Assembly: GCA_036307325.1 (NCBI GenBank)
Contig: JAXJXW010000034.1
Location: forward strand, 1 to 38,264
Reading direction: 5' to 3'
Length of the DNA stretch: 38,264 bases
Source of the DNA: Clostridia bacterium
GTDB taxonomy: Bacteria > Bacillota > Clostridia > UMGS1883
The position numbers and the translations under genes were made by a program. Each line of letters opens with the position of its first letter. Within the stretch, counting starts at the first letter, position 1. Shown piece by piece: positions 20,632 through 38,264 of this stretch. Under the pieces are notes generated by a model that was not told where the DNA came from, did no database searches, and saw only the letters and a program-made list of their open reading frames with translations.

Positions 20632-20661
20632 ACATATAACCAACTAAAAAGAGGTATGATT

Positions 20662-22712: not shown

Positions 22713-23059
22713 TTAAATTTATTTGTTACCCAAAATGTACAACTTGTCAGAAGGCAAAGAAGTGGCTTGATGACAACAAAATTGAATATGAAATTCGTGA
22801 TATAAAAGAGGACAATCCTACTTTTGATGAATTGACCGAATGGTACAAAATGAGTGGAATTCCACTCAAAAAATTCTTTAATACATCCGGACTTTTATAC
22901 AAGTCAATGGAGCTTAAGGACAAGCTTCCTACTATGTCTGAAGAAGACCGGTTAAAATTACTTGCTACAGACGGAATGCTTGTAAAACGACCTCTTGTTA
23001 TTGGAAAAGATTTCGTTTTGATTGGGTTCAAAGAAAGCGAATGGGAAGAAAAGTTATGA
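22709..23059 (+). CDS. ArsC/Spx/MgsR family protein (thioredoxin-fold, CxxC)
   Basis: 116 aa with the N-terminal KCTTCQKAKKWL, comparable to the Spx/ArsC-family CxxC region. The downstream pattern is typical of the family (FNTSGLLYK.., LVKRPLVI). Confidence 0.8.
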   Translation: MIKFICYPKCTTCQKAKKWLDDNKIEYEIRDIKEDNPTFDELTEWYKMSGIPLKKFFNTSGLLYKSMELKDKLPTMSEEDRLKLLATDGMLVKRPLVIGKDFVLIGFKESEWEEKL

Positions 23060-23279
23060 AAAATTTTGGTGCAAAAGCTATTTTACATTGACATCCGGGT
23101 TTATATCGCCGTCAATTGAACCGTGTTCTTCTTCAAACTTTTTGATGTTTTCGCGAATCAGAACTAAAACATGGCTGTTCACGCTGCGGCAAAAACGATG
23201 TCAATGAAACAGCTAATCCGGCTTCAGCAGGCTTAAAATACTTATTTCTCCCAATTTTTTAAAAATGTATATTTTCTTC

Positions 23280-23308
23280 TTGACTTTTGTGACGCCTCTT
23301 GTTATACT
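23280..23308 (+). promoter_or_regulatory. SigmaA-type promoter of the metal-efflux operon
   Basis: TTGACT (23280-23285), a 17-nt spacer, then TATACT (23303-23308). Confidence 0.7.
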
Positions 23309-23316
23309 GTAATCAA

Positions 23317-23340
23317 ACAATTAAACAATTGTTTAATTGT
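23317..23340 (+). promoter_or_regulatory. Perfect 24-bp palindromic operator, a candidate ArsR/SmtB binding site
   Basis: ACAATTAAACAA|TTGTTTAATTGT is a perfect 12+12 inverted repeat. It starts 9 nt after the -10 element and so covers the predicted transcription start region. Confidence 0.65.
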
Positions 23341-23361
23341 GAAATCGAAAGGAGCATAACA

Positions 23362-23580
23362 ATGAAAAAGACTTATAAAATTGAGGTGGACTGTGCCAAC
23401 TGTGCAAACAAAATGGAAGAAGCGGCAAGGAAAACACCGGGAGTGGAAAATGCAACCGTAAACTTTATGCTTCAGAAGATGATTGTGGATTTTGTAGATG
23501 GTGCAGAGCCTGCAGCCGTTATGCAATCCGTTCTTAAAAACTGCAAGAAGGTTGAGGATGACTGCGAAATCTTCCTGTAA
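23362..23580 (+). CDS. Stand-alone heavy-metal-associated (HMA) domain protein
   Basis: 72 aa with a ferredoxin-like HMA pattern and the metal motif DCANCANK. AAAGGAG RBS upstream. The track ORF extension (23299) runs through the promoter and operator and is rejected. Confidence 0.8.
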   Translation: MKKTYKIEVDCANCANKMEEAARKTPGVENATVNFMLQKMIVDFVDGAEPAAVMQSVLKNCKKVEDDCEIFL

Positions 23581-23626
23581 TTTGTAAATCGTACATGAAT
23601 TAAACATACATGGTTGAGGTTTGAAT

Positions 23627-25510: not shown

Positions 25511-25531
25511 CATTAAGAAGGAGAATTTTCT

Positions 25532-25897
25532 ATGTCTGAAATAGAGCTTCCTCACAACCACGGGCAAGCCATGGAGCATAACTTTGACCACATGCCGAAA
25601 ACAGAGGAATTCAGCGTGATTGCCGATATATTTAAGCTTTTGGGTGATAGCAGCAGAATTAAAATTTTCTGGCTAATGTGCCATTGTGAAGAGTGCGTTA
25701 CGAACATTTCTGTCATGATGAATATGACAAGCCCTGCCGTATCACATCATCTGAAGCTGCTCCGAGGGAGCAAGCTGATTACAAGCCGAAGAGAAGGCAA
25801 AGAAGTGTACTATAAAGCGGCAAGCACCGAACAGGTACAGATGCTTCACCACGCAATTGAAAAACTGGTAAAAATCAGCTGCCCCGATAAACAGTAA
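25532..25897 (+). CDS. ArsR/SmtB family metalloregulator (CadC/CzrA-like)
   Basis: 121 aa with the wHTH signatures FKLLGDSSRIKIF and PAVSHHLKLL. It has a Cys cluster, CHCEEC, at the alpha3 position and a His-rich N-terminal tail (HNHGQAMEHNFDH). Confidence 0.88.
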   Translation: MSEIELPHNHGQAMEHNFDHMPKTEEFSVIADIFKLLGDSSRIKIFWLMCHCEECVTNISVMMNMTSPAVSHHLKLLRGSKLITSRREGKEVYYKAASTEQVQMLHHAIEKLVKISCPDKQ

Positions 25898-25942
25898 AGA
25901 GGAAACAAATTTGTTTTTGTAATTTTTTATTTGTTTTGTGAA

Positions 25943-25971
25943 TTGATTTTTGGTGAAAAATGTAGTACAAT
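25943..25971 (+). promoter_or_regulatory. SigmaA-type promoter driving the riboswitch leader
   Basis: TTGATT (25943-25948), a 17-nt spacer, then TACAAT (25966-25971). Confidence 0.6.
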
Positions 25972-26004
25972 GTAATAAATAAATTAAATATCATCACACA
26001 GAGT

Positions 26005-26216
26005 GTCGATTATGCCCCATGTGGCAAGGCTTGCCAAGGCACAATCGGTGAAAAGGGAATGGGGTGAGAATCCCCTGCGATAACTGTCGGTGTATGCTCC
26101 GAAGTTTTTATACTCGTCGGTGAAAACCGGTCATTGGGAAACTGAGAAGGCAGAGTATGAAAATGTCAGATTATCATATAATCTTATATGGAGCGAGTCA
26201 CAAGACCTGCTTTGAT
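26005..26216 (+). promoter_or_regulatory. Cobalamin (B12) riboswitch aptamer
   Basis: Conserved core elements appear in the correct order. These are GGTGAAAAGGGAAT-GGGGTGAGAATCCCC-TGCG..ACTGT (26047-26087), GTCATTGGGAAACTGAGAAGGC (26130-26151; consensus CCACTG..GGGAAGGC) and a B12-box-like GAGTCACAAGACCTGC (26195-26210). Boundaries are approximate. Confidence 0.8.
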
Positions 26217-26313
26217 ATTATCTCGTAATTGCGGCACCCGCATAGGGGTAATGTTTTTGTTTGCCTGAAAAAATTTACGGCATTCAGATTGTGATTCATC
26301 ACAGGAAAACTCA

Positions 26314-26348
26314 GCTGTGGTAATTTTTGAAATTACCGCGGCTTTTTT
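26314..26348 (+). terminator. Intrinsic terminator forming the riboswitch expression platform
   Basis: GCTGTGGTAATTT-(3-4 nt loop)-AAATTACCGCGGC gives a 13-bp stem including two G-U pairs, followed by TTTTTT. It lies about 70 nt upstream of the first ORF. Confidence 0.75.
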
Positions 26349-26419
26349 ATTTGCCTCGGTATATATGGGGGTGTAAAATAACATCAAAAAAATATATACA
26401 AAGAAAGGATTGAATTAAA

Positions 26420-29400
26420 ATGAAAACAAAACGAATTTTGAGCCTCTTGCTTGTGCTGTGTATGTTGCTTTCAACAGCACCCATTTCAGCATTTGCAGAG
26501 GAAATAACTGCTGCCGAAGCTGCAGTAATCTACCTCACCGTAAACAACAAAGGTGTAATTGCTACAGACACCGAAGGCGGCATAATGGCAAATCGTGAAG
26601 TAACCGTGACAGACAGAGATTCTAACGGGTATCTTACTTATGATGAGGCACTTAAAGCAGCACACGAGGCGTTTAACAACGAAGACGGATATATAGGTGG
26701 GGATTATGTAACAAAACTTTGGGGAGAACAAACATCTAATATATTATTTTTCATCAATAATACAGGTCTTACAGAAGGTGTTGGAACATCCATAATTTCA
26801 GCCGGAGACAGATTGACCGCATCTTTAAACAAAGATGATAAAACTTACGCAGATTGGTACACATTCTTTGATAAATCAGAAGAAACTATAGAACCAAACG
26901 AAGAAATTACCCTTACACTCAAAGGGCATCCCGGAATGACCGGAGGTGATGATACAACATTGCAGGGAATAGAAATTGGTATATGGAATGAAGGCGAATT
27001 TTCACCTATCGAAAATGCAGAAACAGACGAAGGCGGAAATATAACTATATCGTTTCCTGATACAGGCATATACTACATAACTGCGGATGGAACTGTTGAA
27101 GCAGAGGTAACTGATTATAATTTATATGATATGTCATCTATGCTGGAATCGGAAAATTCTGTACCTGTATATGGTGTAATGGATTATACAACCGGTGCAG
27201 TACAAATGGCTTATACTGCCGTAGACTATGGTGAAGGCCCATATCCTGCCGGAGAGATAAAGTATGTTGATTTCAATGAATGGGAGAATAATCAAGACGG
27301 GTATAATACATTACAGAGCAATACGCTGATTTCAAATTGCCCCATTATTGCCCCTGTTTGTATTTTAACTGTGGAAGAAAATAGCGCTGCAGGGGAAGAT
27401 ACACCGCCAACTACTGACGATGAAGATACAGGAAAACCTGACGCACCGACAGACAATGAGAAAAAAGACTATGATATTGTAATTCCCGGAGCTTTAGAAA
27501 AAATAGCAGCTAAATATATAAATAACACAGATGAATGGACAGTTATGGATATGGGGGCTTACGAAATTTATGCACCCCAAACGGAATATGCATTGACAGA
27601 TGAAGCAAGACAAGCATTCATCAATTCAGCAATCAGCACAATAAAGGACCCCTCCTGGGCTTTTTCGCCCGATACAGCTATTGATAAGGCTATTTTAGGT
27701 CTTGCTGCAATAGGAAAAAATCCCGAATTGATTTATTTGGTAAATAGCAATACAGCAATATCGGCAATAGAAAAGCTAAACGGCGTTGACAAGTCATCAA
27801 GTGCATGGAATGCTCCTTACACATTGGCAGCGTATAATCAAGGTGACTATGATACCGATAGCTATGAAAAGCAATTGGTAGATGATTTGCTTGCCGGGCA
27901 AAAAGACGACGGCAGTTGGGATGAATGGGGTACAATTGACACAACTGCCAATGTTATTGCAGGATTGTCGTTTTATAAAGACAGAGAAGATGTCAGCACC
28001 GCTATCGAAAAAGCTATAAATTATCTTTCTACACAGCAAACTGCAGAGGGAACATTCTCTGATGGTTACAACGGTTCAAACTCAAATTCGACCGCAATGG
28101 TTGTAATTGGACTTTGTGCTGCAGGCGTTGATTTGATAAATGATGACCGATTTATAAAAGGCGAAAACAACATTATTGACGGATTGCTGTCATTTTTGGT
28201 TGAAAATAAAAATGACTTTGGATTTAGTTATACGGATAAAGAAGCTGTAAACAACGGAGCTACCGAACAAAGCTTCCGCGCCTTAATCGCCTTTATGCAG
28301 ACCATCAAAACAGGTGGAGCTTACAATGTGTACGATTTCAGCGGCAGCGAGTTCACTCCTGCCCGTGAGAAAAGTAATGGCTCATCATCTTCTGCACCCT
28401 CTGAGCCAAGTGGTGATAATATTACTGTTACAATGACAATAAAGGCAGACACAGGCTATTGGCTTAAAAATTACACTACAACCATTCCAAAGGAAGGCGC
28501 AACTGTTTATCACGCATTTGTAAAGGTGTGCAGTGCAAACTCCATAACACATCAGGGTGCTGCACAGGGATATGTTTCATCAATAACTAAGGGCAACAAA
28601 ACTCTTGCCGAATTTGACAAGGGCGACAATTCAGGCTGGCTTTATAAAGTAAACGGCAAATTGCCCACGGTAGGACTTACCGAATTTCCTATAAAAGACA
28701 AAGATACCATTGTTTGGTATTATGCGGAGGATTGGACAAAGGATCCGTCAGCAGGGCATTATGGCGGTTCATCAAGTGTCAGCCAAAAGACAGAAAATAA
28801 TTCTGTTGTAACAACAACAAAGGTTTCAGGGGAAAAGGCAACTGTAACCGCAACGGAAAGCAGTATTAAAGATGCAATTTCAAATGCTGAAAAGAACAAT
28901 ACCGCATCTATTGTTATAGCTCCCACTGACACAAAAAATGCAACTGATATTACACTTGATATTCCTGCAAATTCAGTAAAAGAAATTGCTGAAAGTAAAG
29001 GCTTAACACTTTCTGTTGAAACAACTGCAGGTAATGTGGCTATTTCAAACGAAGCATTAAATGCCATTGCAGAGCAAATCGGAGATAAGGCATTAAATGT
29101 TGTGATTAAAACAAAGCTTGCTGATGAAGCTTCTGTCAGTGAAAAAATAATTTCAAAGGAAGAACTTAAAAATGCATCAATCGTAGAGATTACAATTACT
29201 TCAGGGGACACAAGTATTCACACATTTGGCGGAAATAGCTTGAGTGTTAATGTTCCCGTAAATGAAAGCACTCACAAAACCGGTAAAACCTATAAGGTGC
29301 ACATTATTTCAGCAGACGGAAGTGTTGAAACAGCTTATGGCAAATGCACAGAAAAAGACGGAAAATTATCTGTAGAAGTGCAAACTAATCATTTGTCCAC

Positions 29401-29971
29401 CTTTTTTGTTACAGACGAAGAAAAATCTGCATTTACTGATATTTTAAATCATTGGGCATCTGATGCTATAGAATATGTTTACAATCATTCTATTATGCGG
29501 GGCGTAAGTGAAACTGCGTTTGCTCCTGATGATACTATGACAAGAGCAATGCTTGTAACCGTGCTTTACAGATTGGAAAACCCCACGGAAAAAGCAAAAG
29601 CACATAGCTTTACAGATGTTGAAGATGGAGCTTGGTATGCAGATGCGGTTAGCTGGGCTTTTGAAAACGCAATGGTAAGTGGCGTAACCGAAACGGAATT
29701 TGCCCCGAATGCAGATATTACCCGTGAGCAAATGGCAGCAGTAATGCACCGCTATGCACAGTATAAAAAGCAAGATACATCTATCGGGGAGGACACAAAT
29801 ATCCTCTCATATACAGATGCGGAGGAAATCTCTGAATATGCAATACCTGCTATGCAGTGGATAGTAGGCGCAGGGCTTATGAAGGGCGAAACAGAAGCTA
29901 CCATCAATCCCAAAAACAATTCTACACGCGCACAAGTATCTGCAATCCTTATGCGTTATTTAGAACAGTAA
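26420..29971 (+). CDS. SLH-anchored surface protein with an alpha/alpha-toroid (prenyltransferase/terpene-cyclase-like) domain, a DUF4430 (transcobalamin beta-like) domain and 3 SLH repeats
   Basis: 1183 aa with a signal peptide (..APISAFA|EE). Toroid repeats include ILGLAAIGKNPE, QKDDGSWDEWG, QQTAEGTFSDG and ATEQSFRALIAF. The DUF4430 signature is ..GDNSGWLYKVNGKLPTVG..IKDKDTIVWYY. Three C-terminal SLH repeats begin FTDILNHWASDAIEY.., FTDVEDGAWYADAV.. and YTDAEEISEYAIPAMQW... Confidence 0.85.
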   Translation: MKTKRILSLLLVLCMLLSTAPISAFAEEITAAEAAVIYLTVNNKGVIATDTEGGIMANREVTVTDRDSNGYLTYDEALKAAHEAFNNEDGYIGGDYVTKLWGEQTSNILFFINNTGLTEGVGTSIISAGDRLTASLNKDDKTYADWYTFFDKSEETIEPNEEITLTLKGHPGMTGGDDTTLQGIEIGIWNEGEFSPIENAETDEGGNITISFPDTGIYYITADGTVEAEVTDYNLYDMSSMLESENSVPVYGVMDYTTGAVQMAYTAVDYGEGPYPAGEIKYVDFNEWENNQDGYNTLQSNTLISNCPIIAPVCILTVEENSAAGEDTPPTTDDEDTGKPDAPTDNEKKDYDIVIPGALEKIAAKYINNTDEWTVMDMGAYEIYAPQTEYALTDEARQAFINSAISTIKDPSWAFSPDTAIDKAILGLAAIGKNPELIYLVNSNTAISAIEKLNGVDKSSSAWNAPYTLAAYNQGDYDTDSYEKQLVDDLLAGQKDDGSWDEWGTIDTTANVIAGLSFYKDREDVSTAIEKAINYLSTQQTAEGTFSDGYNGSNSNSTAMVVIGLCAAGVDLINDDRFIKGENNIIDGLLSFLVENKNDFGFSYTDKEAVNNGATEQSFRALIAFMQTIKTGGAYNVYDFSGSEFTPAREKSNGSSSSAPSEPSGDNITVTMTIKADTGYWLKNYTTTIPKEGATVYHAFVKVCSANSITHQGAAQGYVSSITKGNKTLAEFDKGDNSGWLYKVNGKLPTVGLTEFPIKDKDTIVWYYAEDWTKDPSAGHYGGSSSVSQKTENNSVVTTTKVSGEKATVTATESSIKDAISNAEKNNTASIVIAPTDTKNATDITLDIPANSVKEIAESKGLTLSVETTAGNVAISNEALNAIAEQIGDKALNVVIKTKLADEASVSEKIISKEELKNASIVEITITSGDTSIHTFGGNSLSVNVPVNESTHKTGKTYKVHIISADGSVETAYGKCTEKDGKLSVEVQTNHLSTFFVTDEEKSAFTDILNHWASDAIEYVYNHSIMRGVSETAFAPDDTMTRAMLVTVLYRLENPTEKAKAHSFTDVEDGAWYADAVSWAFENAMVSGVTETEFAPNADITREQMAAVMHRYAQYKKQDTSIGEDTNILSYTDAEEISEYAIPAMQWIVGAGLMKGETEATINPKNNSTRAQVSAILMRYLEQ
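27466..28340 (+). other. Alpha/alpha-toroid domain segment of the 1183-aa protein (approximate)
   Basis: Repeated helical-hairpin motifs with D/N-G-(G/S)-W/F turns (DDGSWDEWG, AEGTFSDG). Paralogous to residues ~30-300 of the next ORF. Confidence 0.6.
28421..28735 (+). other. DUF4430-type domain segment (approximate)
   Basis: The segment runs ITVTMTIKADTG...SGWLYKVNGKLPTVGLTEFPIKDKDTIVWYYAEDW. It aligns by eye with the C-terminal domain of ORF 31647-32405 (SGWMYKVNGWFPNYGCSRYQLKEGDKVEWVY). Confidence 0.7.
29432..29968 (+). other. Three tandem S-layer homology (SLH) repeats
   Basis: Each repeat is ~55-60 aa and begins F/Y-TD, with the conserved G...G....F.P....TR(A/E)(Q/M) pattern. Confidence 0.85.
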
Positions 29972-29986
29972 AATTTTAGGCACTAT

Positions 29987-30027
29987 GCGAACAGTCAAAA
30001 AACTACTGCTCGCTTTTGCCCTTTTTT
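29987..30027 (+). terminator. Possible partial (attenuating) terminator between operon genes 1 and 2
   Basis: GCGAACAGT-(9 nt)-ACTGCTCGC pairs at 8 of 9 positions and is followed by TTTTGCCCTTTTTT. It sits in the 71-nt gap before the AAGGAG RBS of the next gene. Confidence 0.35.
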
Positions 30028-30042
30028 AAGGAGTTATAAAAA

Positions 30043-31632
30043 ATGAAGAAATCACTGTCATTTTTAATGTGCTTGATAATAATTTTCAGTCTGTCATCAC
30101 ATATCTTTGCGGCGGATATTGACGCAGTAAACAGTGCAGTGAATGACACTGCAAAATATCTGTATGAATCCGTGCCGGATCCTCAGGTCGGCTCCATAGG
30201 CGGAGAATGGGTAGTTTTGGGCCTTGCAAGAAGCGGAGCGGATATTCCTGATGAATATTTTGAAAATTATTATCAGACAGCAGAAAAATATATTAAGGAC
30301 TGCGGCGGAGTACTCCATGAAAAGAAATACACGGAATATTCAAGGGTTATACTTGCCTTAACTGCCATTGGGAAAAATCCTGCTGAGGTGGCGGGCTATA
30401 ACCTTATAGCACACCTTGAAGATTATGATAAAACAGTATGGCAAGGGATAAACGGTGCCATATTTGCTTTAATCGCTTTAGATAGCGGAGGCTTTATTCC
30501 TCAAAGCACAGTCAGAGAAAAATATGTCAATTATATTTTGGAAAAGCAAAATGATGATGGTGGTTGGGCTATGTCAGGAGATACTGCAGATGCTGATGTA
30601 ACGGCAATGGCATTGCAGGCACTCGCTAAGTATCAAGAAAATGAAAGGGTAAAAACTGCAATAGAAAAAGCACTTTTGCTTATGTCTCGCAGTCAGAACG
30701 AAAACGGGGGCTTTTCAAGTCAGGAAGCTGAATACTCCGAAAGCTGTGCACAAATGATTGTTGCCCTTTGCGAACTGGGAATATCCCCGGAGGATTCTCG
30801 CTTTATCAAAAACGGGAATACAATACTTGATTGTATGCTTACATACTATGAAAAAGGCAATGGATTTAAGCATACAAAAGACGGTACGGCAAATCAAATG
30901 GCGACTGAGCAATGCTTTTATTCACTTGCGGCGATAAAACGCTTCAATGAAGGGAAAAACAGTCTTTACAGTATGAGTGATGCAATTTCTGTTTCAGATA
31001 GCGGCATGGCAGAATACGGTCTTTACGGGAAAAACCCCGATGTTCAGAAAATGAATGTAGTACATGCGGGAAAAACCTTTGAAGATATAAGAGAACATAG
31101 TAACAAATCAGCAATTGAAGCACTTGCAGAGAAAAACATAATCAATGGCAAAACAGAAAACCTGTTTGACCCTCAAAGCACAATGACAAGGGCAGAGTTT
31201 GCCACAATAGTTGTGAGAGGGCTTGGTTTGCCTGTAAAAGGGGAATCCTTCTTTGCAGATGTGGCGGAGAATGATTGGTTTTTTGATTATGTAAATACTG
31301 CGTACTCCTATGGCATAATAAAGGGAGTATCGGATACCGAATTTAATCCCAACGGAACAATTACCCGTGAGGAAGCCGCCGTAATGGCTGCAAGGGCGGC
31401 AACGCTCTGTGGCATGAATACAGAGGTTGAAGTATTTGAGGCACGGGATATTTTAGCGGGCTTTTTGGATTATGTAAAGGCTTCTGATTGGGCGATAGGT
31501 GCTCTTGCCTTCTGTTATGATAAGGGAATACTTTCCGATGATACAATGGAAATAAAGCCGAAGGAAGCTGTTTCAAGAGCAGAAATTGCACAGATGCTTT
31601 ACAATATGCTTTCGCTGTCAAGACTCATTTAG
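30043..31632 (+). CDS. SLH-anchored alpha/alpha-toroid protein (toroid-only paralogue of the upstream gene)
   Basis: 529 aa with a signal peptide (..SSHIFA|AD). Toroid motifs include GGEWVVLGLARSG, ILALTAIGKNPAE, QNDDGGWAMSG, QNENGGFSS and ATEQCFYSLAAI. SLH repeats run from about nt 31078 (FEDIREHSNKSAIEALAE.., FADVAENDWFFDYV.., FLDYVKASDWAIGAL..). Confidence 0.85.
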   Translation: MKKSLSFLMCLIIIFSLSSHIFAADIDAVNSAVNDTAKYLYESVPDPQVGSIGGEWVVLGLARSGADIPDEYFENYYQTAEKYIKDCGGVLHEKKYTEYSRVILALTAIGKNPAEVAGYNLIAHLEDYDKTVWQGINGAIFALIALDSGGFIPQSTVREKYVNYILEKQNDDGGWAMSGDTADADVTAMALQALAKYQENERVKTAIEKALLLMSRSQNENGGFSSQEAEYSESCAQMIVALCELGISPEDSRFIKNGNTILDCMLTYYEKGNGFKHTKDGTANQMATEQCFYSLAAIKRFNEGKNSLYSMSDAISVSDSGMAEYGLYGKNPDVQKMNVVHAGKTFEDIREHSNKSAIEALAEKNIINGKTENLFDPQSTMTRAEFATIVVRGLGLPVKGESFFADVAENDWFFDYVNTAYSYGIIKGVSDTEFNPNGTITREEAAVMAARAATLCGMNTEVEVFEARDILAGFLDYVKASDWAIGALAFCYDKGILSDDTMEIKPKEAVSRAEIAQMLYNMLSLSRLI

Positions 31633-31646
31633 GAAGTGATTTTAAA

Positions 31647-32405
31647 ATGGCAAAACACAAAAACAAAATTATTGCAGGCTTAATTATTGCAGCAGCTTTG
31701 GCATTTGCATTTTTGTGGGGCGGCAATTCTCCCGCCATCAAAAATGAGAATCTGCCGGAAAAGGAAAGCGCAAATATAACCGAGACCCAGGCAGAGCCTT
31801 CCTCAGAATTGCCTGAAAAGGAGGAAGAAAAAAATGATGATTTGCAAGCCTTTGTCAATGAACCCTCCCACACTCAGGACAGTATTGAGGAAAGCGAAGC
31901 AGCTGTAAAAGATGCCCCGCAAAAAGATGAATATCAAACCGAGCCTATACCTGAGGGGAAACCTGTACCTATTGAGCCTGAAAATACAGTTATTTCTCAT
32001 AAGGAACTAACCTGTACAATGTCAGTCAGATGTGATGCAATACTTAAGAATATTGCTTTGCTTGATAAGGCAAAGGTGGAGCTTGTGCCGAAAGACGGCA
32101 TAATCTATGGGGAACAATCGGTTACCTTCTATGAGGGAGAAAGTGTTTTTAATGTGCTTGTGCGTGAAATGAAGCGTAACAAAATACACATGAAATTTGA
32201 AAACACACCCGTTTATAACAGTGCATATATAGAAGGCATTGGTAATTTGTATGAGTTTGACTGCGGCGAGCTTTCCGGCTGGATGTATAAGGTTAACGGT
32301 TGGTTCCCCAATTACGGCTGCTCCCGCTATCAGCTCAAAGAGGGCGACAAGGTTGAGTGGGTATATACCTGCGATTTGGGAGCAGATGTAGGCAAGGAAC
32401 GGTAA
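31647..32405 (+). CDS. Membrane-anchored DUF4430 (transcobalamin beta-like) domain protein
   Basis: 252 aa with an N-terminal TM anchor (IIAGLIIAAALAFAFLWGG) and an acidic, Pro/Glu-rich linker. The C-terminal DUF4430 domain starts at about nt 32007 (..ELSGWMYKVNGWFPNYGCSRYQLKEGDKVEWVYTCDLG). Confidence 0.8.
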   Translation: MAKHKNKIIAGLIIAAALAFAFLWGGNSPAIKNENLPEKESANITETQAEPSSELPEKEEEKNDDLQAFVNEPSHTQDSIEESEAAVKDAPQKDEYQTEPIPEGKPVPIEPENTVISHKELTCTMSVRCDAILKNIALLDKAKVELVPKDGIIYGEQSVTFYEGESVFNVLVREMKRNKIHMKFENTPVYNSAYIEGIGNLYEFDCGELSGWMYKVNGWFPNYGCSRYQLKEGDKVEWVYTCDLGADVGKER

Positions 32406-32413
32406 ATGATCAA

Positions 32414-33301
32414 ATGAATGAGTTTAAAACATATCACCCTATTGTTAATTTTGTGTATTTCATATTTGTAATTGGATTTTCATGTGTTTTTATGCACCCT
32501 ATATGCCTTTTGATTTCTCTTTTATCGGGATTCACATATTCTGTAATGCTCAGTGGAAAAGGGTCAGTCAAGAAAAAACTTATTTACATGATACCAATAC
32601 TGCTTTTTGCGGCACTTATAAATCCCGCATTTAACCACGAGGGTGTAACAATTATCAAATATCTGCCAAACGGCAATCCGCTGACTTTGGAATCTGTTGT
32701 ATACGGGCTTGCGGCGGCAACAATGATTGTGAGCGTCATATGCTGGTTTAGTTGCTATACGAATGTTATGACAAGTGATAAATTTATTTACTTGTTTGGG
32801 AAGGTTATTCCGTCAATGTCACTTATTATATCTATGACACTTCGGTTTGTACCAAGATTTTCCTCGCAGCTTAAGGTAGTAACAAATGCTCAGCGGTGTC
32901 TGGGGCGGGATGTGTCCGGCGGCAGTATAGTGCAGAGGGCAAAACACGGACTTACCATTCTTTCCATAATGACAACATGGGCACTGGAGAACGCAATAGA
33001 AACTGCGGACAGTATGAAATCCCGTGGATACGGTCACCCGGGAAGAACGGCGTTCTCAATCTTTACCTTTGATAAAAGAGATAAAAAAGCTCTTTTATGT
33101 ATTGTGATATTGGGAATATATACACTTGCAGGCAGCTTCTCTGGAGAAATGCACTTCAGATATTTTCCTTCACTGCAAGTAAGCGGTTTTTCCATATTTG
33201 GGATTAGTGTATTTGTTGCATATCTTGCACTTTGTATATGCCCCATAATAATTGAAGCTTGGGAGGTGATAAAATGGAAAGCTATAAAATCGAAAACTTA
33301 A
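32414..33301 (+). CDS. ecfT: ECF transporter transmembrane (T) component, EcfT/CbiQ family
   Basis: Multi-TM protein whose coupling-helix motifs end in RG/LG (NAQRCLGRD and ENAIETADSMKSRGYG). The ATG at 32414 is 8 nt after the upstream stop. The track extension (32357) overlaps the previous gene. Confidence 0.8.
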   Translation: MNEFKTYHPIVNFVYFIFVIGFSCVFMHPICLLISLLSGFTYSVMLSGKGSVKKKLIYMIPILLFAALINPAFNHEGVTIIKYLPNGNPLTLESVVYGLAAATMIVSVICWFSCYTNVMTSDKFIYLFGKVIPSMSLIISMTLRFVPRFSSQLKVVTNAQRCLGRDVSGGSIVQRAKHGLTILSIMTTWALENAIETADSMKSRGYGHPGRTAFSIFTFDKRDKKALLCIVILGIYTLAGSFSGEMHFRYFPSLQVSGFSIFGISVFVAYLALCICPIIIEAWEVIKWKAIKSKT

Positions 33302-35925
33302 GCTTTGTATATCCCAACAGAGCTAATAAAGCACTTGATAATATTAGTATTACCGTCAATCAGGGTGAATTTATAACCTTATGCGGCAAATCAGGCTGCG
33401 GAAAGACAACACTTCTTCGGCTTCTCAAAAGCTCTCTTTCCCCATATGGAGCTTTAAGCGGAAGCATATATTTTGAAGGGAGTATTTTATCCGAAATAGA
33501 TTCAAAAGACCAAGCCGCAAAAATCGGCTTTGTAATGCAAGCGTGCGATAATCAGATTGTGACGGATAAGGTGTGGCATGAGCTTGCCTTCGGTTTGGAA
33601 AGCCTGGGATATTCCACGCCCGAAATCCGAACAAGAGTATCTGAAATGGCATCATTTTTCGGTATAGAGAATTGGTTTCATAAAAAAGTAACGGAGCTTT
33701 CAGGGGGTCAGAAGCAGCTTTTAAATCTTGCCTCGGTTATGGTTATGCAGCCAAGCGTGCTTATTCTGGATGAGCCTACAAGTCAGCTTGACCCTATTGC
33801 GGCACAGGAGTTTTTAAAAACACTGGAAAAGATAAATCATGAGCTTGGTACAACGGTGATTTTATCGGAACACCGCCTTGAGGAGGCTTTCCCAATCTCC
33901 CACAGGATAGTTGTTATGGATAAGGGCAAAATTATTGCAGATGGCACTGTGCAAAAGGTCGGCGAGATATTAAAATCACAAAATCACCATATGTATTTAG
34001 CGCTTCCTGCGCCAATGCGTGTTTACGGCGCATTGGAGAATGGCCATGAATATCCCATTACCGTTCGTGACGGAAGAGCATGGCTTGAAAACTATTCAGA
34101 AAGCCATATGCTGAACAGTGGGGCAATACCAAAAACAATCGGTGATACTTTTTCACCCACTGTTATTGAAGTGAAAGACGCCTTCTTCAGATATGAAAAA
34201 AATTCGCCTGATGTTATAAAAGGATTGAATGTGCAAATAAACAGGGGAGAGCTGTTTTCAATTGTCGGCGGAAACGGAACAGGCAAAACAACGGCACTGT
34301 CGCTTATAAGCGGGCTTAATGCACCCCAGCGGGGAGAAGTTTTAATAAACGGCGAAAGCATTTCTAAGGTGAAAAATTTATATAACGGTATTTTAGGAGT
34401 ACTGCCCCAAAATCCCCAGAGCGTGTTTGTTAAAAAAACAGTTTATCTTGATCTCTTAGAAATACTGTCGGATAAAAAAATATCAAAAGAAGAAAAAGAA
34501 AGCAGGATCAGGAATATATCTCAGCTTTGCAGAATAGAAAATTTGCTTGACTGCCACCCGTATGATTTGTCAGGCGGTGAGCAGCAGCGTGCGGCACTTG
34601 CAAAGGTGCTTCTGATGTCACCCGAAATTCTTTTGCTTGACGAGCCAACAAAGGGGCTTGACGCACATTTTAAACAGATTTTTGCCGATATTTTAGCCGA
34701 TTTAAAATCTAATGGTGTCACCATTGTGGCGGTGTCCCACGATATAGAATTTTGTGCGGAATTTTCTGACAGATGTGCTATGTTTTTTGATGGGAATATT
34801 ACATCTGTGGGTAAACCGAGAGAATTTTTTGCAGGGAAGAATTTTTATACCACCTCCGCAAACAGAATGGCAAGAACAATTCTTCCAAAGGCTGTGCTTG
34901 CAGAGGATATAATACTTGCCTGCGGCGGCAAAGTGCGGGATAGACAAAACAGAAAGGCTTTATCAATCACCTTGCCTGAAAATGATAAAACCGAAAAACA
35001 TAAGGTAAATAATAAAAAATTTCCCATGTCAAGAATTGTCATGGGAAGCATATTTGTTTTGTTATTTTTGATCATATCAGTTTTTCAGCTTTTAGCTAAA
35101 AAACCTTTATCCGCAGACATTTTTCAGTTGATTTCCATTGTGGAAATTGCGGGAGCTTTTATCTGCTTTTTCCCCCAAAGAGAATTTGGCACAGAGTTTA
35201 TCGGAAAGCCGCAAAATAAACAAAGCCTATCAAAACGAACAGCAGTGGCAGCACTTCTCATACTGCTTGCAATACCGCTTACTATCTACATTGGAATATT
35301 TTATTTAGGTGACAGAAAGTATTATTTTATCAGCCTTTTAATTATCATTGAAACTATGATACCCTTTTGTATGGTCTTTGAAAGCAGAAAACCTCAGGCG
35401 AGAGAGCTTGTTATTATAAGTGTTCTTTGTGCTATTGCAGTTGCGGGCAGGACGGCATTTTTTATGGTTCCGCAATTTAAGCCTGTTGTGGCACTTGTAA
35501 TAATTGCAGGAGTTTGTTTCGGCGGTGAAACGGGATTTTTGGTTGGTGCGGTAACGGGCTTTGTATCTAACTTCTTTTTCGGGCAAGGCCCTTGGACCCC
35601 ATGGCAAATGTTTGCTTTCGGTATAATAGGATTTATTGCGGGCATACTTTTCCGCAAAGGCTTTTTGCGAAAAACAAAACTGTCCTTGTGTATTTTCGGA
35701 GCATTTGCCACACTTGTTATATACGGAGGCATTATGACCCCAGCAACTGTAATTATGTCCCAGGATAAGCTGAATTTAGCAATGATTAAGGCGGCCTTTA
35801 TATCCGGCATACCCTTTGATTTAATTCATGCTGCATCAACAGCATTTTCCCTCTGGTTTATCTCTGAACCAATGATTGATAAATTGGATAGAATTAAAGT
35901 GAAGTATGGCTTGATTGAGAGATAA
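33274..35925 (+). CDS. Fusion of two ECF-type ABC ATPase domains (EcfA-EcfA') with a C-terminal polytopic membrane domain resembling an ECF S component
   Basis: The first ATPase domain has GKSGCGKTT, LSGGQKQ and LILDEPTSQLD. The second has GGNGTGKTT, LSGGEQQ and LLLDEPTKGLD. From nt 35026 there are ~9-10 predicted TM helices, including a Gly-rich S-component-like core (GVCFGGETGFLVGAVTGFVSNFFFGQGPWTPWQMFAFGIIGFIAG). The GGGAGGTG RBS lies before the ATG at 33274. The gene overlaps ecfT by 28 nt. Confidence 0.8.
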   Translation: MESYKIENLSFVYPNRANKALDNISITVNQGEFITLCGKSGCGKTTLLRLLKSSLSPYGALSGSIYFEGSILSEIDSKDQAAKIGFVMQACDNQIVTDKVWHELAFGLESLGYSTPEIRTRVSEMASFFGIENWFHKKVTELSGGQKQLLNLASVMVMQPSVLILDEPTSQLDPIAAQEFLKTLEKINHELGTTVILSEHRLEEAFPISHRIVVMDKGKIIADGTVQKVGEILKSQNHHMYLALPAPMRVYGALENGHEYPITVRDGRAWLENYSESHMLNSGAIPKTIGDTFSPTVIEVKDAFFRYEKNSPDVIKGLNVQINRGELFSIVGGNGTGKTTALSLISGLNAPQRGEVLINGESISKVKNLYNGILGVLPQNPQSVFVKKTVYLDLLEILSDKKISKEEKESRIRNISQLCRIENLLDCHPYDLSGGEQQRAALAKVLLMSPEILLLDEPTKGLDAHFKQIFADILADLKSNGVTIVAVSHDIEFCAEFSDRCAMFFDGNITSVGKPREFFAGKNFYTTSANRMARTILPKAVLAEDIILACGGKVRDRQNRKALSITLPENDKTEKHKVNNKKFPMSRIVMGSIFVLLFLIISVFQLLAKKPLSADIFQLISIVEIAGAFICFFPQREFGTEFIGKPQNKQSLSKRTAVAALLILLAIPLTIYIGIFYLGDRKYYFISLLIIIETMIPFCMVFESRKPQARELVIISVLCAIAVAGRTAFFMVPQFKPVVALVIIAGVCFGGETGFLVGAVTGFVSNFFFGQGPWTPWQMFAFGIIGFIAGILFRKGFLRKTKLSLCIFGAFATLVIYGGIMTPATVIMSQDKLNLAMIKAAFISGIPFDLIHAASTAFSLWFISEPMIDKLDRIKVKYGLIER

Positions 35926-35976
35926 ATGTGGCTCTTAAAAATTTTCAAAGCTGATTGTGACAATACCACCAATATA

Positions 35977-36004
35977 GTAGGGGCGATTCGTGAATCGCCC
36001 CTAC
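35977..36004. terminator. Hairpin between the convergent ECF operon and copA
   Basis: GTAGGGGCGATT-cgtg-AATCGCCCCTAC is a GC-rich 12-bp perfect stem. There is no clean U-tract on either strand. Confidence 0.5.
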
Positions 36005-36037
36005 AAGCGTTTGTGCATTTTCTGAAGCCCATGGTAG

Positions 36038-38264
36038 TTATTGGATATTGGTTACTTCATATCCTTGATCGGTAACCGCCTTTGATAAAACAACATCCGG
36101 AATATCTTTATCCATTGTAACTGTAGCGGTTCCCGTTTTGTGGCTGACATTGGCAGAAGTTACACCATCAAGTGCCTCTAAGGCCTTCTTTGTGTGCATT
36201 TCGCAATGCTCACACATCATACCTGTAATTGTCAGTGTTTTTTTCATTGCTTTTGTCTCCTTTCGGAATTTTAATTTGTTATTTATTTTGTGATCCCTAT
36301 TGGAATCATAAATTTTACAGAAATTTAAGCGAAGGGCGTTTGTAACAACACAAAAGCTTGACAAGCTCATTGCTGCCGCACCAAACATGGGACTTAATTG
36401 CCAGCCGAGAATGTTAATAAATACACCTGCCGCCAAAGGAATGCCTATGGTGTTATAAATAAATGCCCAGAACAGATTTTCGTGAATGCTTTTAAGTGTT
36501 GCGCGGCTTAATCGTATGGCGGCAGGAATGTCTGACAGATTGCTTTTCATCAACACAACATCCGCCGCATCTATTGCAATATCACTGCCTGCACCTATGG
36601 CAATACCTATATCGGCACTTGTAAGGGCAGGGGCGTCATTTATTCCGTCACCTACCATGATGACATTTCCCTTTTGTTTAAGAGAGCGAATTACGCTTTC
36701 CTTGCCATCGGGGAGAACATCGGCAATAACCTCGTTAACGCCGGCTCTTTCTCCTATGGCTTTTGCCGTGCGTTCATTGTCACCGGTAAGCATAACTACA
36801 TGAATACCCATGCTCTGAAGCTCTTTTATTGCTTTTGGACTATCTTCTTTTATTATATCTGCCACCGCAATAATTCCCAAAAGCTCATCTTTATATGCGA
36901 AAAATAGCGGGGTTTTGCCCTTCATAGAAAGCTCCTCGGATTTACTCTTTATTTCATCCGGAACTTTTATTTTTTCACTTATAAATTTATAATTCCCCCC
37001 AAGCAGAGCTTCGCCATTGAGTGTTGCGGTGAGGCCGTTTCCGGGAAAAATTTTAAATTCGTCAACCTCTTGCGGTGTAACACCGCATTCCTCTGCCTTT
37101 TTGGTGATTGCCTGTGCCAAGGGATGCTCGCTCTTTTTTTCAAGGGAGCAGGCGAGGGATAAAAGCTCTGTTTCGCTTTTGCCGCCTATTGTTATTATGT
37201 CTGTAACCTGAGGCTTACCCACGGTTATTGTTCCTGTTTTATCAAGTGCTGCAATTTGTGCCTTGCCCGTTTTTTCTAAAGATACTGCCGTTTTGAAAAG
37301 TATTCCGTTTTTTGCACCCACTCCGTTTCCAACCATGATTGCAACGGGAGTTGCAAGACCCAGTGCACAGGGACAAGAGATTACAAGTACAGAAATTGCA
37401 TTGGTCAATGCAAAATCAAACGGCTTCCCCACTAGCAGCCACACTACCAGAGTAATCAAGGAAATACCCATAACAGCCGGTACAAAGATACCGGCAATTT
37501 TATCCGCAAGACGGGCAATCGGAGCTTTGGAACCACCGGCTTCCTCTACCAACCGAATTACTTGAGACAGTGTTGTATCCTCGCCGGTTTTCTCCACACG
37601 GATCTCCAAATAACCTTCCAGATTGATGGTAGCTGCAGCGACTGTGTCATCCGGGATCTTTTCAATAGGAACACTTTCACCGGTCAAGGCACTCTGATCC
37701 ACTGAGCCACGACCGGATATAACTGTACCATCCACAGGAATGTTCTCACCGGATCGAACTACAACAATTTCTCCAAGTCTTACATCCTCAATTGGAACCG
37801 TTACTTCATTACCATTTCTGCGCACACATGCCGTTTTCGGACTCAGATCCATCAATTTCCGTATTGCATCACCGGTCTTTCCCTTCGCCCTGGCCTCTAA
37901 AAACTTACCAATGGTTATTAATGTAAGAATCATCGCTGCAGATTCGAAATACAGATTCTTGCGATATAACTCCACGGTGTTCCAATCACCGTGCCCCATT
38001 GCATAACCGATTGAAAACAGCGCAAAAACACCATAGACAATTGATGCGCCAGAACCAACTGCAATCAACGAATCCATATTAGGCGCTTTATGATAGAGGG
38101 ATTTAAATCCTCTGGAGAAATAAGCGCGATTCAGAAATACCGGAGGAAGTGTGAGAAGGAACTGCAGTAGTGTTGCAACTAAAGCATTCTCTTTTCCCAT
38201 ATACCATCCGGGCATAGGAAGACCAATCATATGGCCCATAGTAAAATACATCAAAATCACAAGA
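36038..38264 (-). CDS. copA: Copper-translocating P1B-1-type ATPase, 5'-truncated by the window edge, with an in-frame C-terminal HMA (CopZ-like) domain
   Basis: Motifs TGES, TM6 SCPCALGLATP, DKTGTIT, SEHPLA and GDGINDAP, plus the TM7 YN and TM8 MSLSS Cu(I) signatures. The C-terminal 69 aa (36038-36247) form an HMA domain with GMMCEHC. The ORF is open to the window end, so the N-terminus is missing. Confidence 0.9.
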   Translation of the reverse strand, partial: LVILMYFTMGHMIGLPMPGWYMGKENALVATLLQFLLTLPPVFLNRAYFSRGFKSLYHKAPNMDSLIAVGSGASIVYGVFALFSIGYAMGHGDWNTVELYRKNLYFESAAMILTLITIGKFLEARAKGKTGDAIRKLMDLSPKTACVRRNGNEVTVPIEDVRLGEIVVVRSGENIPVDGTVISGRGSVDQSALTGESVPIEKIPDDTVAAATINLEGYLEIRVEKTGEDTTLSQVIRLVEEAGGSKAPIARLADKIAGIFVPAVMGISLITLVVWLLVGKPFDFALTNAISVLVISCPCALGLATPVAIMVGNGVGAKNGILFKTAVSLEKTGKAQIAALDKTGTITVGKPQVTDIITIGGKSETELLSLACSLEKKSEHPLAQAITKKAEECGVTPQEVDEFKIFPGNGLTATLNGEALLGGNYKFISEKIKVPDEIKSKSEELSMKGKTPLFFAYKDELLGIIAVADIIKEDSPKAIKELQSMGIHVVMLTGDNERTAKAIGERAGVNEVIADVLPDGKESVIRSLKQKGNVIMVGDGINDAPALTSADIGIAIGAGSDIAIDAADVVLMKSNLSDIPAAIRLSRATLKSIHENLFWAFIYNTIGIPLAAGVFINILGWQLSPMFGAAAMSLSSFCVVTNALRLNFCKIYDSNRDHKINNKLKFRKETKAMKKTLTITGMMCEHCEMHTKKALEALDGVTSANVSHKTGTATVTMDKDIPDVVLSKAVTDQGYEVTNIQ

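Follow-up and report, generated by a model that had tools for sequence, protein, structure and literature searches.

A five-gene operon of an uncultured gut or rumen Clostridium sets wall-anchored proteins beside an ECF transporter, downstream of a cobalamin riboswitch. What would such proteins do next to an importer, and is the cargo a corrinoid? An initial annotation of the 38,264-nt stretch of DNA analysed here (hereafter the window) had proposed corrinoid capture on the cell wall followed by import. Every sequence feature that it named is present, and all four computational checks that it had proposed, namely an Rfam search, a Pfam domain search on the five proteins, a structural comparison and a search for co-occurrence in other Clostridia, gave positive results.

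Operon layout and leader RNA

The ORF listing contains five co-directional ORFs, whose products are identical to the NCBI proteins MEE0867020-24 and follow one another as a toroid+DUF4430+SLH protein, a toroid+SLH protein, a DUF4430 protein tethered to the membrane, EcfT and a fused EcfA-EcfA'-S protein encoded by 33274-35925. The first four ORFs lie 71, 14 and 8 nt apart, and the last two overlap by 28 nt, exactly as annotated. A purine-rich, Shine-Dalgarno-like stretch precedes all five starts and is clearest in genes 1, 2 and 5. The features are as follows.

25943..25971, + strand: promoter-like TTGATT-17-TACAAT, 9/12 consensus matches
26010..26228, + strand: cobalamin riboswitch aptamer RF00174, 44.6 bits, E 3.6e-8
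26313..26349, + strand: intrinsic terminator (expression platform), 14-bp stem, 3-nt loop, T-run
26420..29971, + strand: Protein 1, 1183 aa, MEE0867020; signal peptide, N-terminal module, toroid, DUF4430, spacer, three SLH repeats
26501..27439, + strand: Protein 1 N-terminal recurrent module, aa 28-340; AF2 pLDDT 90.9, Foldseek
27440..28369, + strand: Protein 1 alpha/alpha toroid, transcobalamin alpha-domain-like, aa 341-650; AF2, Foldseek
28496..28726, + strand: Protein 1 DUF4430 / SLBB beta-grasp, transcobalamin beta-domain-like, aa 693-769; PF14478 E 7.8e-17
28760..29419, + strand: Protein 1 Ser/Thr-rich spacer, aa 781-1000; no Pfam match, conserved in 25 homologues
29429..29968, + strand: Protein 1 wall anchor, three SLH stretches; PF00395 E 5e-28
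30043..31632, + strand: Protein 2, 529 aa, MEE0867021; signal peptide, toroid aa ~25-335, three SLH repeats aa ~341-529
31647..32405, + strand: Protein 3, 252 aa, MEE0867022; hydrophobic N-terminal membrane anchor, tether, DUF4430 aa 164-241
32414..33301, + strand: Protein 4, EcfT / CbiQ transmembrane component, 295 aa, MEE0867023; PF02361 31.5 bits (cutoff 25), NCBI name
33274..35025, + strand: Protein 5 N-terminal part, fused EcfA-EcfA' ATPases; two ABC_tran domains
35026..35385, + strand: Protein 5 aa ~585-704, four additional TM-like hydrophobic segments before the S core; hydropathy scan
35392..35925, + strand: Protein 5 C-terminal part, CbrT-like ECF S component; PF12822 45.3 bits (cutoff 30.7)
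35977..36004, unstranded: closing GC-rich hairpin with a 12-bp stem, flanked by convergent genes, z -3.85

The aptamer, annotated earlier as a cobalamin-riboswitch-like leader, exceeds the RF00174 gathering score of 31.5, covers the full model (1-189), contains a B12-box-like AGUCACAAGACCUGCU and is the sole Rfam match in the window. Downstream of it, the terminator scan ranks first a 14-bp hairpin at 26313-26343 that runs into TTTTTT; its folding energy is about -17.7 kcal/mol and the leader z-score is -3.6, in agreement with the strong intrinsic terminator claimed for this leader. Class I B12 riboswitches have an established ligand-off behaviour. Judged from this behaviour, ligand bound to the aptamer would favour the terminator and abort transcription, and the operon products would be made when B12 is scarce.

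The proposed TTGATT-17-TACAAT promoter exists at its position, but matches of this quality are no more frequent than in shuffled sequences (30 found, 32.3 expected); what makes it plausible is solely its location, 39 nt ahead of the aptamer. The GC-rich hairpin said to close the operon was also found (GTAGGGGCGATT-CGTG-AATCGCCCCTAC). It is absent from the output of the terminator scan because no T-run directly follows it, and it is a candidate bidirectional terminator. No B12-dependent enzyme or cob gene was found within the window.

Transcobalamin-like domains of the surface proteins

Pfam recovered SLH, DUF4430, CbiQ/EcfT, ABC_tran and ECF S component domains, in line with the earlier annotation. 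DUF4430 is the C-terminal domain of vertebrate transcobalamins (PMC4350170; PMC1796856). The AF2 model of the toroid and DUF4430 domains of Protein 1 (aa 340-780; pLDDT 92.2, pTM 0.88) has transcobalamin (TC), haptocorrin (HC) and intrinsic factor (IF) as all of its 15 best PDB matches in Foldseek, with E-values of 1e-9 to 9e-8, as expected from the transcobalamin-like architecture assigned earlier. These matches span both domains and outrank all terpene cyclases (about 1e-5), which are also found in the Foldseek listing together with unsaturated glucuronyl hydrolases and complement TED domains. The isolated beta domain of human TC (5no0) aligns with the Protein 1 model at a TMt of 0.74 and an rmsd of 2.5 A. 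The whole model superposes poorly on holo-transcobalamin (TM 0.31-0.42, rmsd about 21 A), indicating that the modelled domain arrangement is unlike the ligand-bound clamp.

At the sequence level, the toroid of Protein 1 scores below the SQHop_cyclase threshold and that of Protein 2 falls just under the Prenyltrans and SQHop cutoffs. PF01122 has no match in Proteins 1 and 2 themselves, and a family profile searched against PDB sequences did not reach TC, IF or HC. The two toroids share 31% identity with each other (E 3e-24). The toroid of Protein 1 also shares 27% identity (E 9e-25) with that of P0070, one of the homologues with the same architecture as Protein 1 whose toroids pass the PF01122 cutoff.

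The N-terminal module of Protein 1 probably begins with a divergent SLBB/DUF4430-like domain and continues with Ig-like beta-sandwiches. Its Pfam DUF4430 E-value is 0.035, and its top Foldseek match is haptocorrin 4kki (E 2.4e-3, prob 1.0, 121 columns), followed by 3u7z (TMt 0.60) and then by Ig folds. The module is present in 73 of 119 homologues, in tandem in some. One relative of it (P0112) is joined to domains that resemble the chelatases CbiX/CbiK, folds that handle tetrapyrroles.

The SLH region of Protein 1 matches the SLH domain of B. anthracis Sap (E 1.2e-9), and the three SLH repeats of Protein 2 are detected at E 1e-34. The DUF4430 domain of Protein 3 (PF14478 E 1.5e-18) is 30% identical to that of Protein 1 (E 5e-15) and is carried on an acidic, Pro-rich tether with 24 D+E and 11 P among 88 residues.

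The ECF transporter and related loci

The ATPases of Protein 5 pass the ECF_ATPase_1 and ECF_ATPase_2 models (TIGR04520, 353.6 with a cutoff of 315; TIGR04521, 336 with a cutoff of 330). By sequence, the S component of Protein 5 is a relative of CbrT, its top PDB match being 6FNP_A, CbrT of ECF-CbrT (E 4.8e-9, residues 7-177 of 182). The unit of four extra segments also occurs within a standalone 302-aa S protein (P0184), and two of the four are present in a 242-aa S protein of Hathewaya histolytica. In the SEED annotation, CbrU is a duplicated ATPase and CbrV the T component, matching Proteins 5 and 4, respectively.

In other Clostridia, too, B12 riboswitches precede this set of genes, a recurrence that the initial annotation had suggested looking for. 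RF00174 is found in all eight loci in which an ECF module lies alongside and the upstream DNA can be read, including that of the cultured H. histolytica, in which a sortase signal takes the place of SLH. The aptamer is followed by a hairpin and T-run in L001, L003, L005, L006 and L012, and the terminator stems of L005, L006 and L012 have unrelated (non-homologous) sequences. The aptamer is also present in L014, L016 and L017. The gene order of the operon is kept in L003, L005, L006, L008, L010, L016 and L017. In most loci, one transcription unit holds the binder genes and the ECF genes in a constant order, and in every complete locus the gene for the membrane-tethered DUF4430 protein directly precedes EcfT. 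L001 has a riboswitch ahead of the three surface-protein (binder) genes alone, with no ECF genes attached, and L007 and L015 encode giant binder proteins without an ECF module. A toroid is fused or adjacent to DUF4430 in hundreds of family representatives, and the fused family comprises more than 400 representative clusters.

Proposed function and known systems

The locus most probably (probability about 0.8) is an operon for scavenging and importing corrinoids (the vitamin B12 family) that is off when the cell has enough B12. This B12-repressed capture and import is well supported computationally by the riboswitch, the domain identities, the fold similarity, the relation to CbrT, and the synteny and its recurrence with riboswitches; the CbrT-related S component and the binder-only riboswitch locus L001 give further backing to the earlier corrinoid reading. 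Protein 1 would be secreted and held on the wall by SLH as a complete transcobalamin-like unit, with a probable second, divergent SLBB-like domain at its N-terminus. Proteins 2 and 3 may form a split unit, an SLH-anchored toroid and a DUF4430 domain tethered to the membrane via the acidic linker. Proteins 4 and 5 would form a dedicated ECF transporter, EcfT plus a single chain that combines EcfA and EcfA' with an extended S component of the CbrT type. The wall-anchored binders would catch corrinoids at the wall or outside it and enrich them close to the membrane, and the split pair or the tethered DUF4430 protein would pass them to the S component, which would topple in the membrane and free its cargo inside, driven by ATP hydrolysis. 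Wall display, the ligands of the individual binders, the sequence of transfer steps and physical contact of any of the proteins with the transporter are inferences from these features. ECF transporters normally work without an extracytoplasmic binding protein, so the hand-off step is not demanded by the transporter mechanism.

Because S components bind their substrates directly and with high affinity, and because ECF-CbrT functions without such partners, the importer could take up free corrinoid alone, and the surface proteins could sequester or store corrinoids, thereby withholding a scarce public good from competitors or buffering the supply. The binder genes of L001 and the giant binders of L007 and L015, which lack an adjacent transporter, are consistent with this. 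However, co-transcription in a fixed order argues for delivery, and the position of the tethered DUF4430 gene directly before EcfT suggests a role at the transporter. Moreover, the S component carries two to four extra TM segments that are absent from the binder-free CbrT of Lactobacillus delbrueckii and could serve as a docking surface. Storage instead of delivery is therefore rather unlikely. That the toroid proteins are wall enzymes or glycan binders (alpha/alpha toroids of terpene-cyclase-like, glycoside-hydrolase-like or thioester-domain-like type) that have nothing to do with B12 and only share a transcript with a B12 importer is very improbable. In favour of this reading, Proteins 1 and 2 match only SQHop_cyclase and Prenyltrans by sequence, below threshold, and Foldseek also retrieves the terpene cyclases, glucuronyl hydrolases and TED domains named above. 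However, transcobalamin-family structures rank ahead of these with E-values better by about four orders of magnitude and with both domains aligned, homologues pass the PF01122 cutoff, the association of toroid with DUF4430 spans hundreds of representatives, and the L001 riboswitch controls binder genes alone.

The remaining alternative is import of heme or another non-corrin tetrapyrrole. The L. sakei Lsa1836-1840 ECF system has been studied experimentally and linked to heme uptake, and its split alpha-like and beta-like transcobalamin proteins are proposed heme scavengers (bioRxiv 10.1101/864751). It is the only system of this kind with genetic data, and as the sole experimentally tested homologous system it counts against the B12 reading; it also weighs against the novelty implied earlier. 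By description, it shares with the operon an S component, a fused AA' ATPase, a T component and secreted beta-like and alpha-like proteins, and the P0112 fusion likewise speaks for this alternative. However, the operon and the eight related loci are under a cobalamin riboswitch and not under a regulator that responds to iron or heme, the S domain is closest among solved structures to the B12 transporter CbrT, and no heme-utilisation genes lie within the window. In addition, the L. sakei S component lacks the residues expected for cobalamin, according to its authors, so that system may be a diverged branch. It also has a heme assignment, no reported B12 riboswitch and binders only as a split pair, and it lacks the SLH anchoring and the A-A'-S fusion of the operon. 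Import of heme or another non-corrin tetrapyrrole is thus improbable here.

Among the known systems, ECF-CbrT of L. delbrueckii (PDB 6FNP; Santos et al. 2018, PMC5997447) is an experimentally proven importer of cobalamin and cobinamide. It is likewise of ECF type, but its CbrT, a group II S component of 182 aa, uses a shared general ECF module and has no transcobalamin-like partners, whereas here the module is dedicated and both ATPases are joined in one chain to an S core with four extra TM segments. The eukaryotic carriers (transcobalamin, intrinsic factor and haptocorrin; PF01122 + DUF4430) share the toroid-then-beta-grasp order and DUF4430 and are the top structural matches, but sequence identity is only 11-15%. 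[quoted passage not shown] Bacteroides BtuG and BtuH, accessory surface lipoproteins that capture B12 ahead of the transporter in B12-riboswitch-controlled loci (PMC6977713), are functional analogues of the binders. However, their fold is unrelated (BtuG is a beta-propeller), and they are lipid-anchored to the outer membrane and deliver to TonB-dependent BtuB, not to an ECF transporter.

The novelty implied by the initial annotation was overstated. Burroughs, Balaji, Iyer and Aravind (2007) predicted that toroid+SLBB surface proteins in CbiO/CbiQ operons are B12 scavengers (PMC1796856), cbrTUV (Rodionov et al.; cited as cbrUVT in PMC8123684) is an established B12-uptake signature, and the family is large. 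As in the 2007 class, a secreted Gram-positive protein fuses toroid and SLBB, the operon encodes another, paralogous SLBB protein, both are linked to an ATPase resembling CbiO and a membrane protein resembling CbiQ, and the proposed role is scavenging of B12 or its precursors. In contrast, the tethers of that class are LPXTG, Ig, FIVAR, fasciclin and beta-propeller instead of SLH repeats, and the 2007 work, a prediction without experiment, does not mention the riboswitch, S component and A-A'-S fusion present here. No report of B12 binding by any bacterial toroid/DUF4430 protein was found in the searchable literature. Because such systems were predicted in 2007 and are common, the operon is not a discovery but a good candidate for testing.

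A riboswitch-headed operon of five genes

The locus is best read as a B12-repressed system for the capture and import of corrinoids, a reading to which we assign a probability of roughly 0.8. The region from 25943 to 36004 (+) is one transcription unit, and its five products are exact matches to NCBI MEE0867020-24. Its features are as follows.

25943-25971 (+), promoter-like site
26010-26228, cobalamin riboswitch aptamer (RF00174)
26313-26349 (+), intrinsic terminator with a 14-bp hairpin and a T-run, 85 nt 3' of the aptamer
26420-29971 (+), protein 1, toroid and DUF4430 surface protein
30043-31632 (+), protein 2, toroid surface protein
31647-32405 (+), protein 3, membrane-tethered DUF4430 protein
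32414-33301 (+), protein 4, EcfT
33274-35925 (+), protein 5, EcfA-EcfA'-S fusion
35026-35385, four extra hydrophobic segments of protein 5 (aa ~585-704), between the ATPases and the CbrT-like core
35977-36004, GC-rich 12-bp hairpin, between the operon and a convergent CopA-like gene

The covariance model of RF00174, the sole Rfam family detected in the window, scores the aptamer at 44.6 bits (E 3.6e-8), above the gathering score of 31.5, and covers model positions 1-189, so that the cobalamin-riboswitch-like leader of the initial annotation is confirmed as a full aptamer. The strong intrinsic terminator described there is also present. A terminator hairpin with a T-run occurs in 6/6 leaders checked, namely that of the window and five related ones, and the stems are unrelated in three. 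Class I B12 riboswitches are OFF switches. The gene spacings, three gaps (71, 14 and 8 nt) followed by a 28-nt overlap, reproduce the five-ORF layout as originally drawn, and a purine-rich Shine-Dalgarno-like stretch lies 5' of each of the five starts, most clearly at genes 1, 2 and 5. The proposed promoter fared less well: the site exists, but it matches 9/12 consensus positions, a degree of match no commoner than in shuffled sequence, and its position is its sole support.

The window is an entire contig (38,264 bp) from a MAG of an uncultured Clostridia bacterium. Outside the operon it consists of housekeeping and metal-resistance genes, and neither B12-dependent enzymes nor cob/cbi genes were found there. 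A mobile-element origin of the operon was considered and rejected, as GC content hardly varies (0.403 across the operon, 0.415 across the window) and no integrase or transposase lies nearby. Metal and redox stress genes flank the operon. Those upstream (21966-25897) encode a rhodanese, an ArsC/Spx-like protein, a Cd/Zn-type P-type ATPase and an ArsR regulator, and downstream (36038-38260) lies the convergent CopA-like ATPase with a CopZ-like domain. Three ORFs have no Pfam match, at 16998-17840 (-, 280 aa), 21596-21916 (+, 106 aa) and 23302-23706 (-, 134 aa); the last runs into the start of the P-type ATPase ORF and is perhaps no real gene. A Fic-domain protein is encoded at 20656-21579. Terminator-like patterns number 26 in 25000-38264, compared with 11.9 expected from shuffles (sd 3.3), and are mostly intragenic.

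Surface proteins and their likeness to transcobalamin

Proteins 1 to 3 are the candidate binders of the system. Protein 1 (1183 aa) is composed, from its N- to its C-terminus, of a putative signal peptide, an N-terminal module of ~310 aa, an alpha/alpha toroid, DUF4430 (PF14478, E 7.8e-17), a spacer rich in Ser/Thr and three SLH repeats. In protein 2 (529 aa), a putative signal peptide precedes a toroid, which is 31% identical to the toroid of protein 1 (E 3e-24), and three SLH repeats. Protein 3 (252 aa) begins with a hydrophobic anchor, from which an acidic proline-rich linker of 88 residues leads to a DUF4430 domain (E 1.5e-18); this domain and its counterpart in protein 1 share 30% identity. 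The putative Sec signal peptides of proteins 1 and 2, read by eye, are MKTKRILSLLLVLCMLLSTAPISAFA/EE and MKKSLSFLMCLIIIFSLSSHIFA/AD. The SLH family (PF00395) matches three stretches in each of the two proteins (E 5e-28 and E 1e-34, respectively), where the Sap SLH domain is matched as well, and Pfam thereby bears out the SLH and DUF4430 domains originally assigned to proteins 1-3. SLH repeats bind pyruvylated cell-wall polymers, and such anchoring occurs in 68/119 homologues in a domain tally.

An AlphaFold2 model of residues 340-780 of protein 1, calculated with 31 homologues as input, has a pLDDT of 92.2 and a pTM of 0.88. Its 15 best PDB matches in Foldseek are transcobalamin (TC), haptocorrin (HC) and intrinsic factor (IF), with E values from 1e-9 to 9e-8, in agreement with the transcobalamin-like architecture proposed at the outset. 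The alignments span 454-482 columns, so both domains are covered, and terpene cyclases rank behind at ~1e-5. As in TC, HC and IF, the DUF4430 beta-grasp domain of protein 1 is preceded by a toroid, an order collinear with TC, and the beta domain of human TC (5no0) fits the model with an rmsd of 2.5 A and a TMt of 0.74. Global superposition of the ligand-free model on holo-TC gives a TM of 0.31-0.42 and an rmsd of ~21 A, so the placement of the domains in the model appears to differ from that in the holo clamp. Vertebrate transcobalamins carry DUF4430 as their C-terminal domain (PMC4350170), in line with the initial annotation.

Unlike the family of the eukaryotic carriers, proteins 1 and 2 have no match to PF01122 (Cobalamin_bind) at E <= 0.01. 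DUF4430, SLH, CbiQ and the ECF S component are all significant in Pfam. Six homologues of the same architecture do exceed the PF01122 cutoff in their toroids (27-34.7 bits versus 25), and the toroid of protein 1 matches that of one such homologue at E 9e-25. Protein 1 thus counts as a relative of this family rather than as a direct member of the Pfam model. Single-sequence PDB searches with proteins 1 and 2 reached SLH domains and squalene-hopene cyclase repeats only, and a 32-sequence family profile did not reach transcobalamin in the PDB at E <= 1. What ties the proteins to the eukaryotic carriers is the fold search, DUF4430 and the PF01122-positive homologues.

The N-terminal module of protein 1 (aa 28-340, 26501-27439) belongs to a module of ~200-290 aa that recurs in 73/119 homologues and stands in tandem, in two to three copies, in P0025, P0059, P0026 and P0038. 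Its first ~120 residues match DUF4430 of Pfam at E 0.035, and their best Foldseek matches are haptocorrin (4kki) and 3u7z from R. gnavus; the part beyond is Ig-like. The start of the module is probably a divergent SLBB/DUF4430 domain, and therefore the operon may contain three beta-grasp ligand domains, not two. In P0112, a homologue of 1136 aa, the module is joined to CbiX and CbiK chelatase domains, a composition that suggests an extracytoplasmic tetrapyrrole-handling protein.

The ECF module and its conserved partners

In ECF transporters, the S component binds the substrate, and the EcfAA'T module drives its toppling in the membrane. Protein 4 is an EcfT/CbiQ component (PF02361, 31.5 versus a cutoff of 25). 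In protein 5 (883 aa), two ECF-type ATPase domains (TIGR04520, 353.6 with cutoff 315; TIGR04521, 336 with cutoff 330) are followed by the four extra hydrophobic segments and then by an S component (PF12822, 45.3 versus 30.7). The EcfT and the EcfA-EcfA'-S fusion of the initial annotation thus score above cutoff throughout. An S component is thus encoded together with EcfT and a pair of EcfA-type ATPase domains, as in dedicated (group I) ECF transporters of the CbrTUV type, in which CbrU is a duplicated ATPase and CbrV the T component.

The gene signature cbrUVT is a standard one for B12 uptake (PMC8123684). The best PDB match of the S domain is 6FNP_A (E 4.8e-9, residues 7-177 of 182), followed by 4hzu_S at E 0.04. 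Chain A of 6FNP is the CbrT subunit of an ECF transporter of L. delbrueckii that imports cobalamin and cobinamide (PMC5997447), so that the CbrT-type import invoked earlier for Lactobacillus stands. The cbrT gene of L. delbrueckii sits in the cluster nrdJ-cbrS-cbrT-pduO. The kinship of the S domain to CbrT is remote and below orthology grade, within a very large family (4889 matches). The S unit is longer than the characterised CbrT (182 aa) by virtue of its four extra hydrophobic segments. The 303-aa C-terminal unit of protein 5 occurs elsewhere as a standalone protein of 302 aa (P0184); therefore the S component here is of an extended CbrT type that is incidentally fused to ATPases. A 242-aa form in Hathewaya histolytica, with 70% identity, has two of the four extra segments. 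One possibility is that these segments are a docking site for the surface binders.

Conservation was surveyed in ten genome loci and seven further contexts. The order of toroid-DUF4430 protein, toroid protein, tethered DUF4430 protein, EcfT and EcfAA'-S is kept in L003, L005, L006, L008, L010, L016 and L017. RF00174 lies directly 5' of L001, L003, L005, L006, L012, L014, L016 and L017, and the riboswitch is present in 8/8 loci, the window included, in which an ECF module is adjacent and upstream DNA is available; the upstream DNA of L004, L008, L009 and L010 is too short for this count. The gene set therefore recurs behind B12 riboswitches in other Clostridia, a recurrence that the initial annotation had suggested looking for. 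L007 and L015 lack both an adjacent ECF module and the riboswitch, which was searched for at E <= 0.1 in L007 and at gathering thresholds only in L015. In L001 (1969-7608), the riboswitch and terminator control three binder genes alone, followed by TetR and shikimate-pathway genes, and no ECF module lies within 7 kb; therefore B12 regulation belongs to the binders themselves. In the locus of the cultured H. histolytica (L012, 1367-10729), a riboswitch of 109.7 bits is followed by genes for a DUF4430 protein, a sortase, a toroid protein, a tethered DUF4430 protein, CbiQ, a duplicated ATPase and an S component. Compared with the window, the ATPase and S component genes are separate, and the sortase and a PKTGD sorting signal at the end of the toroid protein take the place of SLH repeats.

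The fused toroid and DUF4430 family is common: an exhaustive search gives 434 representative clusters at E <= 1e-30, a number that rises to 3013 when the limit is relaxed to E <= 1e-10. The representative search also lists members of more than 3000 aa. Giant surface proteins with DUF4430 and toroid domains are encoded in L007 (2336-12496), where a single protein of 3386 aa fuses both toroid units, and in L015 (1685-11865), where they measure 2439 aa and 954 aa.

Proposed corrinoid capture and the rival readings

The analysis shows a conserved linkage of a B12 aptamer and terminator, transcobalamin-like folds and a CbrT-like S component. In the capture and import reading, corrinoids would be captured by the wall-anchored proteins. 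Close to the membrane, the protein 2 toroid would pair with the tethered DUF4430 of protein 3 as a split transcobalamin, and the cargo would go to the S component, perhaps via its extra helices. One rival comes from L. sakei Lsa1836-1840, a homologous system reported to import heme. By its published description, it has the same five-part make-up as the window (S, AA', T, beta-like and alpha-like). Regulation unrelated to B12, as would be expected of such a heme system, is not what the window shows: a cobalamin riboswitch heads the operon here and in 8 related loci. Because of the riboswitch and the relationship of the S domain to CbrT, heme uptake is improbable for the window. That the surface proteins sequester corrinoids without delivering them is improbable too, to a lesser degree; an ECF module is encoded in the same transcription unit. 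That the toroids are enzymes unrelated to B12 is hardly credible, with cyclase folds outranked by the B12 carriers in the structure search.

A stronger form of the capture and import reading is an obligatory ordered relay of corrinoids by the three extracytoplasmic proteins across the Gram-positive envelope, which is tentative and in our judgement rather doubtful. In such a relay, an outer SLH-anchored protein with two ligand-binding beta-grasp domains would hand cargo to a split transcobalamin, reconstituted from the SLH-anchored toroid and the membrane-tethered DUF4430 and docking on the extra helices of the extended CbrT. If true, this would be the first ECF transporter to rely on binding proteins outside the cytoplasm. 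Such a relay would be the counterpart of BtuG in Gram-positives, perhaps with the ability to strip host intrinsic factor or haptocorrin of B12, and would stand as a living model for the bacterial forerunner of the animal B12 carriers.

Burroughs et al. (2007) described secreted bacterial toroid and SLBB proteins with paralogous SLBB partners in the same operon, noted linkage to CbiO/CbiQ, predicted a role in B12 scavenging and proposed that animal transcobalamin was acquired from low-GC Gram-positives (PMC1796856). The novelty implied in the initial annotation is thereby reduced, since the architecture and the B12 role were predicted in 2007 (PMC1796856). No paper in the searchable literature reports that a bacterial DUF4430 or toroid protein binds corrinoids. 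The particulars here, which are SLH anchoring, the A-A'-S fusion, the extended S component and the probable third SLBB-like domain, are modest variations shared by many relatives.

Corrinoid competition shapes gut and rumen communities. To our knowledge, surface capture of B12 has been demonstrated in Bacteroidetes only (BtuG, BtuH), and the passage of a cofactor of 1.3-1.6 kDa through the thick wall or S-layer of Gram-positive anaerobes is poorly documented. The window locus and its many relatives are obvious candidates for Gram-positive B12 surface capture, and H. histolytica, a cultured carrier of the riboswitch-controlled gene set, could serve as an experimental model. If binding is confirmed, it would help to decide whether the L. 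sakei relative is truly a heme system, an ECF transporter would be shown to work with extracytoplasmic partners, and the transcobalamin fold, together with the transfer to animals proposed for it, would gain a bacterial model.
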